From Spirochaetia bacterium (GTDB lineage: Bacteria > Spirochaetota > Spirochaetia > SP-2023), in assembly GCA_965263295.1 (NCBI GenBank), contig OZ253665.1, positions 2,080,001 through 2,144,000 of the forward strand: a stretch of 64,000 nt of DNA, given 5' to 3'. Under the pieces are notes generated by a model that saw only the letters and a list, made by a program, of their open reading frames with translations, was not told the DNA's origin and searched no databases. Below are positions 3,763 through 7,821 of the stretch, in pieces. How positions within the stretch are numbered: the stretch's first letter is position 1; each line of letters opens with the position of its first letter. Both the position numbers and the translations under genes were made by a program.

Positions 3763-5424
3763 CTAGTCTTCCCCATTAGCGCCCTCGCCCTCGCGGTAGA
3801 GATGCAAGTAACACGTTCGCATTACGGGTCTACTCCGTCCGCCATCTTCATCTATTGCCGTTATCGCAAACTCCAATTTAATGGGGTCAACACCATTCTG
3901 CTCCTTTTCAATCTCCTCCAGTAACTCAGATCTCACAGTTCTACTAAAAAATGAGCGCTGTTCATCGAAATCGGAGCTCGAGAACTCGTTGTTTTCCATA
4001 TATAAATCGTGATTATTGACCTTCCATTCCCACGTATAAATATAGCCATCCATGTCCTCAGCGACCACATCCAAATAAAAATCTCTTATGTAATTATTCT
4101 CCATAAAAAAAGTTTTATTTTCCGGGGCTGAGACCTCCTTAAACTCTGACGTCGGCACCACGTTCACGTTCAGTGTTCGAGATATCGGAACTTCCACCCC
4201 CATGTCATCCGTCACCGTTACTTTTACCACCACCTTGTGGGGGTCGCCCTCAATCTGCGATTGCCCCTCTTTCAGCGGCGAGTACAAGGTCAGGCTTGCT
4301 TCCGGGCCTGTTTCGCCTTCCTGCTCCACTCCATTGACCTCCCAGCGGTAGGTCAGCTCACCACCATCTTCGTCATTACCTTGAACAATGAAGGTCTGCG
4401 GCGTGCCAGTATTTATATCCGCAAGATGAAACCATTCATCCTCTGCAACCGTCGTCCCATCTTCATCAAACTCTGGCCTCGGCGCATGGTTGGCCTGCAG
4501 GGTCAAGCGGTAGGTTGCTTCGGCACTGTTGCCGTCCTCATCCGTGACCGTCACCCGCACTTGATACGGATCCTCACTTGCTTCAAAACCCTGCGTTGCC
4601 AGCGTAAAAGCCTCTGTCTGCGCGCCTAGCGTCCAGTCGCCAGCCCCAGGTGCCTGGTACTCCCACAGATATTCAAAGACACTTGATTCCGGTGATTCCT
4701 CGTCGCGCACATTCACCGCAAACTCAATATCCTGGCCCACCCTGGCCGTGCCAGAGTCCCCAACCGTCGGCCGCGTAAAGCTCAGCGGCGCGGCCACATC
4801 CGTCAAGAATTTTTCCGGCAGCTCAATGCTGGCCGTGGCCTGGAATTGCCCTTCGGCAGTTTGGGTGGCCAAGAAAGCTTCAACCACCACCTCTAATTCA
4901 CCGGCGGAAATATCGGACCATTCAACAGGCAAATAATCTTTCCAATCTTGAGGATCGAGGACAAAAAATTGTTTTTCACCCTCTACCGCCGTGATCTGAT
5001 ATTCAGTGGCATCGCCGCCATCATTGTAATTTTCACTCCGCTGCAGCCAGAAAGTTTCGGCAATTTCATCCGCAGTCTCAGCAGAATCTTCATCTGTTTC
5101 TGCACTTTCGGCGGCTTCATCTGTCGCCTCACTGTCTGCCATTTTCTGGCGCAGACCCCAACGCACGGCCACATCAGCCCAAAAATCGGCCAGCTCCTGC
5201 GCGGCCAGCTCGCTATCTTCCAAGACGATGTGCTCGTCTTTAATAAAGGAATCAATATAAAATTGTATTTCCCCGGTCTGCTCAAGTCTCTTTGAGTCCA
5301 GGTCAATTAATGTTTTGGGCCCAGAGTCCGAATCGGATGAATCATCCTCACAACCCCAAACAAACAGGGCCAAAAGCGCGAGACTGACGGCAAAGAGCCG
5401 TTTAAAAATTAGACCAGATGACAT
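3763..5424 (-). CDS. Surface lipoprotein with three Ig/PKD-like domains, paralog 1
   Basis: Signal peptide with LFVWG-C lipobox; acidic protein; three repeats of D-x-D..Y-x-W ... (V/I)T(V/A)xD-x-x-G; AAGGAGG RBS. Confidence 0.8.
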   Translation of the reverse strand: MSSGLIFKRLFAVSLALLALFVWGCEDDSSDSDSGPKTLIDLDSKRLEQTGEIQFYIDSFIKDEHIVLEDSELAAQELADFWADVAVRWGLRQKMADSEATDEAAESAETDEDSAETADEIAETFWLQRSENYNDGGDATEYQITAVEGEKQFFVLDPQDWKDYLPVEWSDISAGELEVVVEAFLATQTAEGQFQATASIELPEKFLTDVAAPLSFTRPTVGDSGTARVGQDIEFAVNVRDEESPESSVFEYLWEYQAPGAGDWTLGAQTEAFTLATQGFEASEDPYQVRVTVTDEDGNSAEATYRLTLQANHAPRPEFDEDGTTVAEDEWFHLADINTGTPQTFIVQGNDEDGGELTYRWEVNGVEQEGETGPEASLTLYSPLKEGQSQIEGDPHKVVVKVTVTDDMGVEVPISRTLNVNVVPTSEFKEVSAPENKTFFMENNYIRDFYLDVVAEDMDGYIYTWEWKVNNHDLYMENNEFSSSDFDEQRSFFSRTVRSELLEEIEKEQNGVDPIKLEFAITAIDEDGGRSRPVMRTCYLHLYREGEGANGED

Positions 5425-5553
5425 ATCTGTATCCTCCTTACGAATGAATGTGGGCTACAAATTTTAAATGAGGAACGATATGGAATAAGAAAATAATAAT
5501 ATTGGTTCGCAGGCACGGGCAAAATTGCCAATAGAAGCACCTAGAACATTTCT

Positions 5554-5582
5554 AGTATATAGCCCCAAACCAACTTTGACAA
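5554..5582 (-). promoter_or_regulatory. Sigma70-type promoter of lipoprotein paralog 1
   Basis: TTGTCA-17 bp-TATACT on the minus strand. Confidence 0.7.
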
Positions 5583-5632
5583 GTATTTTAAAATATTTTA
5601 CAAAATATTTTCGCCTTTCCCCTTCAGAGACT

Positions 5633-5966
5633 CTGGCCAAGTAACCACGAAAAACACTAAAAAAATACAAAACAACACGAAAAATTCTAAAATTCTAAAG
5701 AGCCCATCCGCCTGGACGCCCCCCGCAGCTCCCCATCGTGCCACCCGCGGCTCCCCCGCCTAAATTTCGTGCCTTTTCGCCGTCTTTCGTGCCTTTCGTG
5801 GTCCCCGGGCCAAGTAACCACGAAAAACACTAAAAAAGTACGAAACGACACGAAAAATTCTAAAGCGCCGCGCCTGCCTCCCTGCCACCCGCGGCTCCCC
5901 AGCCTAAATTTCGTGCCTTTTCGCCGTCTTCGTGTACTTTCGTGGTTCCTCTTTCGTGGTCCCGGA
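5633..5966. repeat. CACGAAA-phased palindromic repeat cluster B (two units)
   Basis: Two consecutive units of GGCCAAGTAACCACGAAAAACAC..CCTAAATTTCGTGCCTTTTCGCCGTC. Confidence 0.9.
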
Positions 5967-6072
5967 TGAAAAAATTGAGCATAGGCTGCCGTCACTCACG
6001 CTTGATTGACTACGATGCCTAGATCCCTTCCATGATTATTACATAGTTGAACGCAATGGCTCTCATTTCATT

Positions 6073-7821
6073 CTAGTCTTCCCCATTAGCGCCCTCGCCC
6101 TCGCGGTAGAGATGCAAGTAACACGTTCGCATTACGGGTCTACTCCGTCCGCCATCTTCATCTATTGCCGTTATCGCAAACTCCAATTTAATGGGGTCAG
6201 CACCATTCTGCTCCTCTTGAATCTCCTGCAGTAACTCATATCTCACAGAAATAAAATATGAGTTATATAAATCAGGCATCATGGTCTGAGCGAACTCGCC
6301 TATGTCTGAATCTAGATCGCGATTATTGAGCTTCCATTCCCACGTAGTCCACCCATTACTCTCGTCGTAATCCATGTCCTCAGCGAACACATGCAACTCA
6401 AAATTTTTAATGTAAAAGTCATAATCGTCACCAGACGGGTCAAGACGATTCATAAAAAAAGTACCACCTTCATGAGATGAAGATCTCCCAGAATCAAACT
6501 CTAGCGTCGTCGTCGGCACCACGTTCACGTACAGCGTTCGAGATATCGGAGCTTCCTCCCCCATGTCATCCGTCACCGTTACTTTTACCACCAACTTGTG
6601 GCGCTCATCGGTGCTCATCGCTTCAATCTTCTCCTGACTCAAACCCTTTAGCGGCGAGTACAAGGTCAGGCTTGCTTCCGGGCCTGTTTCGCCTTCCTGC
6701 TCCACTCCATTGACCTCCCAGCGGTAGGTCAGCTCACCACCATCTTCGTCATTACCTTGAACAATGAAGGTCTGCGGCGTGCCAGTATTTATATCCGCAA
6801 GATGAAACCATTCATCCTCTGCAACCGTCGTCCCATCTTCATCAAACGTTGGCCTCGGCGCATGGTTGGCCTGCAGGGTCAAGCGGTAGGTTGCTTCGGC
6901 ACTGTTGCCGTCCTCATCCGTGACCGTCACCCGCACTTGATACGGATCCTCACTTGCTTCAAAACCCTGCGTTGCCAGCGTAAAAGCCTCTGTCTGCGCG
7001 CCTAGCGTCCAGTCGCCAGCCCCAGGGGCCTGGTACTCCCACAGATATTCAAAGACACTTGATTCCGGTGATTCCTCGTCGCTCACATTCACCGCAAACT
7101 CAATATCCTGGCCCACCCTGGCCGTGCCAGAGTCCCCAACCGTCGGCCGCGTAAAGCTCAGCGGCGCGGCCACATCCGTCGAGAATTCTGCGGGCAGCTC
7201 AATGCTGGCCGTGGCCTGGAATTGCCCTTCGGCAGTTTGGGTGGCCAAGAAAGCTTCAACCACCACCTCTAATTCACCGGCGGAAATATCGGACCATTCA
7301 ACGGGAAAATGATCGGGCAAATTATCTTTCCAATCTTGAGCATCGAGGACAAAAAATTGTTTTTCACCCTCTGCGGCCGTGATCTGATATTCAGTGGCAT
7401 CGCCCTCATCATTGTAATTTTCACTCCGCTGCAGCCAGAAAGTTTCGGGAATTTCATCCGCAGTCTCAGCAGAATCTTCAGAGGCGCTTGCTTCAGCTTC
7501 TGAATTTTCGGCGGCTTCATCTGTCGCCTCACTGTCTGCCATTTTCTGGCGCAGACCCCAGCGCACGGCCACGTCAGCCCAAAAATCGGCCAGCTCCTGC
7601 GCGGCCAGCTCGCCGTCTTGCAAGACGATGTGTTCGTCCTTCATAAAGGAATCAATAAAAAATTCAAATTCCCCGGCCTGCTCAAGTCTCCTTGAGTCCA
7701 GGTCTATTAATGTTTTGGGCCCAGAGTCCGAATCGGATGAATCCTCACAACCCCAAACAAACAGGACCAAAAGCGCGAAGCTGACGGCAAAGAGCCGTTT
7801 AAAAATTAGGTCAGATGACAT
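6073..7821 (-). CDS. Surface lipoprotein with three Ig/PKD-like domains, paralog 2 (582 aa)
   Basis: Start ATG at 7821 (MSSDLIFKR) by homology with paralog 1 and an AAGGAGG RBS; LFVWG-C lipobox. Confidence 0.82.
   Translation of the reverse strand: MSSDLIFKRLFAVSFALLVLFVWGCEDSSDSDSGPKTLIDLDSRRLEQAGEFEFFIDSFMKDEHIVLQDGELAAQELADFWADVAVRWGLRQKMADSEATDEAAENSEAEASASEDSAETADEIPETFWLQRSENYNDEGDATEYQITAAEGEKQFFVLDAQDWKDNLPDHFPVEWSDISAGELEVVVEAFLATQTAEGQFQATASIELPAEFSTDVAAPLSFTRPTVGDSGTARVGQDIEFAVNVSDEESPESSVFEYLWEYQAPGAGDWTLGAQTEAFTLATQGFEASEDPYQVRVTVTDEDGNSAEATYRLTLQANHAPRPTFDEDGTTVAEDEWFHLADINTGTPQTFIVQGNDEDGGELTYRWEVNGVEQEGETGPEASLTLYSPLKGLSQEKIEAMSTDERHKLVVKVTVTDDMGEEAPISRTLYVNVVPTTTLEFDSGRSSSHEGGTFFMNRLDPSGDDYDFYIKNFELHVFAEDMDYDESNGWTTWEWKLNNRDLDSDIGEFAQTMMPDLYNSYFISVRYELLQEIQEEQNGADPIKLEFAITAIDEDGGRSRPVMRTCYLHLYREGEGANGED

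Follow-up and report, generated by a model that had tools for sequence, protein, structure and literature searches.

Genes A and B, a pair on the reverse strand of the 64,000-nucleotide stretch analysed here (the window), encode two of the ten intact paralogous proteins (A-J) found in the genome. With a probability of roughly two in three (about 0.65), judged from their sequences, these are ten predicted surface lipoproteins with mosaic anchors and stalks and a fast-evolving last domain that is probably a tip for adhesion or recognition, subject to diversifying selection. The best reading is a multicopy adhesin family of LigA/LigB type in its organization, apparently shaped by gene conversion plus diversifying selection, which is not a Lig member because it has PKD-type domains and no Big_2. 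Such a pattern would suit adhesins whose binding, or recognition by others, keeps changing. The features below were defined from open reading frames, sequence comparison and domain borders; all lie on the reverse strand (-).

3363..3657 (-): hairpin repeat behind A
3658..3762 (-): 105-base 3' flank of A, of a kind found behind A, B and C only
3763..5424 (-): gene A, 553-aa predicted lipoprotein
3766-4152 (-): Ig3 of A
3892..4152 (-): variable part of A's terminal Ig domain, codons 425-511
4153-4491 (-): Ig2 of A
4240..4269 (-): short form of the dimorphic Ig2 loop (A), also in paralog F, P0001 and P0002
4492-4806 (-): Ig1 of A
4807-5349 (-): N-domain of A
5350-5424 (-): signal and lipobox (VWG-C) of A
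5425..5638 (-): promoter/leader of A, with TTGTCA-17-TATACT at 5582-5554, an (ATT)n tract and AAGGAGG
5633..5967 (-): dispersed hairpin repeat (AACCACGAAA...TTTCGTGGTTAC), two units lying between genes B and A, z -5.2
5968..6072 (-): 105-base 3' flank of B
6073..7821 (-): gene B, 582-aa predicted lipoprotein
6076-6513 (-): Ig3 of B
6202..6513 (-): variable part of B's terminal Ig domain, codons 437-540
6514-6867 (-): Ig2 of B
6601..6645 (-): long, predicted helical form of the dimorphic Ig2 loop (B), also in D, E and genus-mates
6868-7182 (-): Ig1 of B
7183-7746 (-): N-domain of B
7747-7821 (-): signal of B
7822..8036 (-): promoter/leader of B, with TTGTCA-17-TATACT at 7979-7951

Both reading frames agree with the earlier note, and the 582 aa of B are counted from an ATG preceded by the AAGGAGG ribosome-binding site. 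The lipobox cysteine, read from the sequence by eye, is at residue 25 (MSS..KR, a hydrophobic stretch, VWG-C), and A, B and the paralogs are predicted to be lipid-anchored and likely surface-exposed. The shared promoter proposed for the pair is borne out by the same promoter-like site before A and B. The two bodies had also been described as near-identical, which holds for the stalk (4271-4800 vs 6647-7176, 5 of 530 bases differ) and for the last codons with the 3' flank (3628-3927 vs 5938-6237, 5 of 300), but not for the N-terminal third, which is less alike, with residue changes at 19 of 175 aligned codons plus indels. In Ig3, as already described, identical blocks (FM, AEDMD, TWEWK, NN) are interleaved with divergent segments of unequal length. 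A duplication created by assembly is unlikely because in a second assembly a B-type protein, P0001, which has the upstream frame unique to B, and an A-type protein, P0002, are both encoded on contigs of 81,443 bases, the equal size suggesting a single contig. A's tip was matched exactly in contigs of two of four runs, and no listed contig spans the A-B pair.

Eight paralogs have the promoter, lipoprotein signal and N-domain in common, and two share Ig modules only. The A-type promoter/leader precedes all eight N-domain genes, each of which keeps promoter and ribosome-binding site, and the (ATT)n tract of the leader varies from 3 to 9 units. The paralogs are mostly dispersed in the genome (92.6% complete by markers), and the N-domain is genus-restricted. 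The tips of D-J are different domains, not variants of one, and proteins from other assemblies supply additional tip alleles, so the further paralogs and alleles that the earlier note had called for do exist. Tip types found in one sample or study turn up again in others, and sample X3 has at least four tip types in contig data. Orphan C-terminal fragments of 64-160 bases were found downstream of three of the ten genes; these are an E-type remnant of 50 codons behind D, an F-type remnant of 54 codons behind I and one of 64 bases behind J.

By their sequences, the anchors and Ig-like stalks of the family are mosaics of one another. The 69 informative sites of A, B and D fall into 26 runs (P = 5e-5), and runs tests gave a mosaic signal in all five triplets (P 5e-5 to 0.01), upholding the proposal that the stalk is homogenised by gene conversion. 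The segment of domain 2 previously taken for a second hypervariable region is instead a two-state loop, whose short and long forms recur in paralogs D, E and F and in genus-mates; P0001 is a B body carrying the short form. As read from these sequences, the loop is an old dimorphism common to the family.

Amino-acid change is unusually fast in the last domain. B and C (a dispersed copy) differ at 34 bases, 30 of which fall in the variable part of the last Ig domain (104 of 582 codons, P = 8e-19), and the differing codons include 24 residue-changing and 2 silent ones (neutral simulation, P = 0.006 for the whole gene; not significant in Ig3 alone, P 0.10-0.14). Between A and B, Ig3 has 43 residue-changing vs 2 silent codons and the N-domain 19 vs 9 (Fisher P = 0.002). 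Among the pairs formed between assemblies, 48 of the 88 differences between G and P0007 fall in residues 561-640 of 730, and those between A and P0002 are likewise concentrated in the tip. Strong tip concentration is limited to these two of the five pairs: B differs from its counterpart at 21 positions, mostly at the Ig2 loop, H throughout, and D is identical over the overlap.

Codon models on three sequences gave dN/dS of 2.2-2.5 for Ig3 (P about 0.01-0.03; twice the log-likelihood gain over omega = 1, 4.6-6.7) and about 0.6 for the N-domain, values that recombination among the three sequences, multi-base changes and uncertain alignment at 485-491 can each inflate. The NG86 estimate for Ig3 of A vs B was 0.85-0.98, so that the ratio above one sought earlier for domain 3 appears in the codon models and not in the pairwise count. 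An NG86 omega of about 0.85-1.0, the lower GC of Ig3 (0.39-0.41 vs 0.54-0.61 in Ig1-2) and an N-domain omega that implies weak constraint overall are also what relaxed selection would give, in which case the tip, either dispensable or too diverged for conversion, would drift while the rest is homogenised. This is considered improbable, given that silent divergence between A and B at conserved residues is equal in Ig3 (2/38, 5%) and the N-domain (9/156, 6%) whereas residue change in Ig3 is about five times higher, that core residues, C strand and frame of Ig3 are conserved in all five sequences compared, and that residue-changing codons so outnumber silent ones between B and C.

Domain matches of A and B are of PKD/Big_9 type; Big_2 (PF02368) had no match in A and B (E up to 1) or D-J (E up to 0.01), and a PDB search returned no Lig-named chain among 13 matches. 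HHalign finds Ig3 homologous to Ig2 (E 1.3e-5, probability 59), and the predicted folds match sandwiches of Ig/cadherin type as well as the stalks of RTX/SiiE adhesins, in agreement with the Ig/PKD-type beta-sandwich suggested at the outset. The models are weak, with mean pLDDT of 61.5 and 59.8 and about 41-69 in the variable part. Among the variable positions of Ig3 are alternating residues along strand B and the loop that follows; this loop, in an Ig domain of usual topology, faces back towards domain 2. Given this placement, the variation seems to occupy one side of domain 3 and not just the tip loops, a reading based on low-confidence models; the picture of antibody-like loops at the tip, as worded earlier, is not supported.

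Exposed residues changing fast around a constant core, and several tip types within one sample such as X3, would also be expected if the tips vary to evade attachment by phages or predators, or host innate receptors, and not to alter adhesion, the same genetics then having another driver. The different domains at the tips of D-J fit different ligands, and there is no promoter-level switch; this driver is held to be improbable.

Under the preferred reading, a diversifying adhesin family, homologous recombination (gene conversion) among the copies would keep promoter, N-domain and stalk near-identical and would also shuffle modules such as the two-state Ig2 loop, while point changes and indels in the tip would be favoured by selection. 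The outermost domain is likely swapped between copies; an occasional whole-tip replacement would leave a terminal piece of the previous tip stranded downstream of the new stop codon. All copies may be expressible together, so that a cell would show a repertoire of tips and not one switched expression site.

A hairpin repeat adjoins all ten family genes, lying 26-251 bases downstream of nine in the same orientation and 228 bases upstream of the tenth. Upstream of the B leader, likeness to A and C stops at the GTGGTTACT end-motif of this repeat. It occurs at 65 loci in the genome and in none of three genus-mates, as a species-specific extragenic palindrome, with modular units of about 150-170 bases in tandem, whose ends and hairpin resemble attC (AAC...GTT ends). 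The repeat likely provides downstream homology for the exchanges and for dispersed copies such as C. A stronger version, in which this lineage-specific repeat behind lipoprotein genes serves as a universal downstream crossover, so that terminal Ig domains and promoter-gene units are exchanged and dispersed genome-wide among ten co-expressed mutual donors under positive selection without an archive, is a speculative and rather unlikely one. The association with the family may be hitch-hiking, because the repeat also stands beside other lipoprotein genes and duplicated genes, where it is enriched, and because related proteins are also expanded in genus-mates, where no copy of the repeat was detected.

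Searches of the genome for dedicated machinery gave no match to reverse transcriptase (PF00078; the same search was positive in 3 of 14 controls), a best integron integrase score (TIGR02249) of 71 bits against a cut-off of 265, only two PF00589 recombinases, and no match to the Y1/RAYT transposase (PF01797). Adenine is involved in 15 of 30 differing sites, and no promoterless, silent or non-coding copies of the A, B or G tips were found, only the three short orphan ends. With neither a promoterless archive nor a reverse transcriptase or integron integrase detected, antigenic variation programmed to occur within the host by dedicated machinery (vls/vmp/pilS or DGR type) is very unlikely, even if constant homology around a variable segment with a downstream inverted repeat recalls the UHS/DHS of relapsing-fever Borrelia (PMC4534519) and the leader tract varies in length. 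Antigenic variation in the strict sense, as suggested earlier, also sits poorly with the intact expression signals of all eight N-domain genes, the lack of silent cassettes and the tip types shared across samples.

Among known systems, C-terminal displacement in Rhs/CDI proteins reportedly combines a constant N-terminal body with an exchanged C-terminus and downstream remnants of other C-termini. The family shares this layout, with Ig-like tips instead, no toxin family among Pfam matches and remnants of only 64-160 bases. REP/BIME elements are species-specific imperfect extragenic palindromes in modular intergenic arrays, as is the repeat described here, which differs in its longer units, the lack of a Y1/RAYT transposase and its enrichment beside lipoprotein and duplicated genes. 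Tandem beta-sandwich stalks are shared with bacterial Ig-stalk adhesins (RTX adhesin 6xi1, SiiE 2yn5, GhpA 9fls, collagenase PKD 4aqo, R28 8cxj); the likeness does not go beyond the fold (TM-scores of 0.2-0.3 over the query, identity about 12%), and the anchor here is that of a lipoprotein, not type I secretion. Like Borrelia vmp UHS/DHS, vlsE and pilE/pilS, the genes have a variable segment flanked by conserved homology, a downstream inverted repeat and segmental mosaics (PMC4534519), whereas they have no single expression site or promoterless archive and their tip types are shared between samples.

The closest parallel is Leptospira LigA/LigB, whose identical upstream region and near-identical proximal part are ascribed to gene conversion (PMC7821625). 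As there, these are spirochaete lipoproteins with tandem Ig-like domains, in tandem genes with distinct distal domains, and the paralogs share a promoter and a near-identical proximal part maintained by gene conversion. The present family differs in its PKD/Big_9-like domains, its ten mostly dispersed members, its genus-restricted N-domain, the restriction of variation to one terminal domain after which the last ~40 codons and the 3' flank are identical again, and its orphan tips and flanking hairpin repeat. The exact residues apparently under selection can be named, so that single domains can serve as bait for a partner, be it a host receptor, a glycan or a phage, and if the hairpin repeat is truly an exchange site, it would represent an archive-free route to surface diversity. 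A conserved stalk with a variable tip and gene conversion is a well-known theme in general, of which this uncultured spirochaete lineage offers a clear case, a constant scaffold with a fast Ig-like tip, independent of Leptospira Lig.

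The source genome is a single 2.41-Mb contig containing the window (marker completeness 92.6%; coordinates prefixed G000:C1 refer to the whole contig), and two neighbouring lipoprotein genes, A and B, were found in the window:

3763-5424, minus strand: gene A, intact ORF with a lipoprotein signal
6073-7821, minus strand: gene B, intact ORF with a lipoprotein signal

The tandem paralogs with near-identical bodies described in the earlier note were confirmed, having differences at only 5/530 bases in a stretch of the stalk and 5/300 in the tail and 3' flank, with a promoter-like site (TTGTCA-17-TATACT) upstream of both. 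An N-domain is followed by the Ig-like domains Ig1-Ig3, of which the terminal Ig3 (the tip) is homologous to Ig2, with insertions (HHalign E 1.3e-5, probability 59). In Pfam, PKD is over its cut-off in A, and PKD/Big_9 are under the cut-off in B. A duplication created by misassembly is unlikely because another assembly encodes both a B-type protein (P0001), including the unique upstream frame of B, and an A-type protein (P0002), on contigs of 81,443 bases each. The tip of A also has a mismatch-free match in sequencing runs X1 and X3, one of which may be the source sample; the A-B pair is unspanned by contigs. In the leaders of the eight paralogs (5425-5520 and 7822-7920 in the window), an (ATT)n tract, 3-9 units long, lies behind a small hairpin; it has a 6-base length variant in run X3 and could possibly tune expression.

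As the earlier note expected, further paralogs are present genome-wide, giving a family of 10 matching ORFs (A-J, 489 to 1768 aa). A-H have in common the promoter/leader, signal and N-domain of ~190 residues, while I and J have only the Ig modules in common with the rest. The terminal domain is of one type in A, B and C, of a different type in each of D-H, and of a further type common to I and J. Relatives were found in two of three genus-mates and in none of the 37 other genomes searched. Those of the genus-mates (L031-L034, in G002 and G001) are lipoproteins of 2800-3500 aa that carry this N-domain and the Ig modules, and two of the G001 copies match exactly for about 1000 residues, with divergence at the C-terminus. 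In a wide profile search, N-domain matches were limited to a few proteins of this 2800-3500-aa kind, the remainder matching by Ig modules. The literature listings obtained contained no description of the family. Additionally, two lipoprotein genes (G000:C1:1898167-1900005 and 1977078-1978916) encode identical proteins with a weak N-domain match (E 4.6e-6), each followed by the hairpin repeat considered below.

Sequence comparisons establish that change is concentrated in the tip. Of the 34 bases at which B differs from its dispersed copy C, 30 lie within codons 437-540 (P=8e-19); the changed codons comprise 24 residue-changing and 2 silent ones. The pattern is seen again between A and P0002, and between G and its counterpart P0007 (48/88 differences within residues 561-640); the last residues of P0002 differ and look like this tail DNA read in another frame. 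B and P0001 have 21 differences, most in the Ig2 loop, differences between H and P0010 are spread throughout, and D and P0005 are identical over their overlap. Between A and B, silent differences in same-residue codons number 2/38 in Ig3 and 9/156 in the N-domain, and residue-changing codons 43 and 19, respectively (Fisher P=0.002). The dN/dS above 1 implied by the earlier reading of a variable tip is obtained for Ig3 with codon models of A, B and C (omega 2.2-2.5, against 0.56-0.69 in the N-domain; twice the likelihood gain 4.6-6.7, P about 0.03-0.01), a thin base of three recombining sequences. By NG86, B and C have a dN/dS of 2.6-2.8 for the domain (P 0.10-0.14, neutral simulation 0.10) and 3.35 over the whole gene (P 0.04, simulation 0.006). 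The A-B value in Ig3 by the same method (0.85-0.98) would by itself argue against selection, but the codon counts given above stand against it; the B-C excess within the domain is not significant. Positive selection on the tip is moderately supported.

Mature B was modelled, at a mean pLDDT of 61.5, with three strand-rich domains and values of about 61-89 in Ig1-2, below 55 in the N-domain, 48-64 in most blocks of the variable part of Ig3 and 73-82 in its last strands; a model of A Ig2-3 scored 59.8. Foldseek matches, at low TM-scores, include Ig- and cadherin-type sandwiches, among them RTX and SiiE adhesin stalks. Among five sequences, Ig3 sites with at least three states occur in strand B (472/475/477, between conserved hydrophobics) and the loop preceding it, in the A-A' region, in the loop after AEDMD, and at 505-528. 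No such variation is seen in TWEWK and most of the final two strands, although the constancy of the last strands in A, B and C is not independent evidence, their DNA there being identical. Placed by the usual Ig topology, the variable sites would occupy one side of the domain and loops at both ends, which does not fit the antibody-like loops proposed for the tip, as these would be grouped CDR-like at one end.

Gene conversion, earlier proposed for the stalk, is supported by blocks of incompatible ancestry at informative sites in 5/5 triplets; A/B/D has 26 runs among 69 sites (P=5e-5), in a test that clustered multi-base changes can inflate. The N-domain of A is partly closer to D/E/F, yet its stalk is that of B, and C combines A-like upstream repeat DNA, the B body and mixed 3' flanks. 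The supposed hypervariable segment of Ig2 instead comprises two old forms, distributed over D, E, F and the genus-mates, P0001 having a B body with the short form. Behind three genes lie orphan pieces of C-termini of the E and F types, two of them 50-54 codons long at 62-63% identity and one of 64 bases:

G000:C1:810450-810602: remnant behind D, stop codon and related 3' flank kept
G000:C1:79071-79220: remnant behind I, stop codon and related 3' flank kept
G000:C1:2299646-2299709: remnant behind J

The family, its mosaicism and its orphan tips are established; such remnants are the scars that replacement of a tip would be expected to leave. Across the sequencing runs, C-type changes are present in X1 and X3. 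X3 and X4, from two studies, both have a B-type tip lacking 6 bases, which by count fits the two-residue deletion of P0001, and another A-position variant; X3 has at least four tip types. That the types recur from sample to sample suggests polymorphism standing among strains, as seen in contigs, which cannot show rare variants.

A dispersed repeat is associated with the family genes. It is an imperfect palindrome of modular build (z -5.2), has 65 loci and about 21 kb genome-wide, and was found in none of the three genus-mates. Nine family genes have it 26-251 bases downstream, in the same orientation, and H has it 228 bases upstream. Copies in the window are:

3363-3657: repeat copy
5633-5967: repeat copy
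27775-28286: repeat copy
33982-34051: repeat copy

By crude ORF and lipobox calls, with paralogs not independent, it adjoins 20/66 lipoprotein-like ORFs versus 64/1506 others (odds ratio 9.8), and 17/36 ORFs having a paralog of at least 80% identity versus 67/1536 (odds ratio 19.6). Its ends are reminiscent of attC sites, but searches of the genome turned up neither an integron integrase nor a Y1 transposase nor a reverse transcriptase, and no enzyme that would mobilise the repeat. The repeat may cause the exchanges or may only accompany them. Dense arrays also occur at G000:C1:1900000-1931000, among lipoproteins, about seven tandem short coiled-coil genes, presumably Bdr-like, and a GxxExxY-like ORF; the repeat ends every unit, resembling a cassette array without an integron integrase. 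It also follows each of two giant ORFs of about 3600 codons (G000:C1:121919-132910 and 1046798-1057618). A further lipoprotein-like ORF (window 26675-27673, plus strand) is directly followed by tandem repeat units. Elsewhere, by inspection, the window has three degenerate transposase-like remnant copies (42736-44240 and 57381-57747), and the genome a duplicated ORF cluster resembling phage-tail genes (G000:C1:724743-729769 and 1914796-1918808).

The initial observation is real and richer than first noted. The family is a variation on the known theme of adhesins that combine a conserved stalk with a variable tip, and surface display and adhesion would be expected of its proteins. Membership in the Lig proteins was rejected for lack of Big_2. 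The family is nonetheless like LigA/LigB, tandem spirochaete lipoproteins with promoter and proximal domains in common, attributed to gene conversion (PMC7821625). The layout also resembles the UHS/DHS of Borrelia vmp genes (PMC4534519), but neither a single expression site nor an archive was found here. The orphan ends recall the C-terminal displacement of Rhs (PMC3150448).
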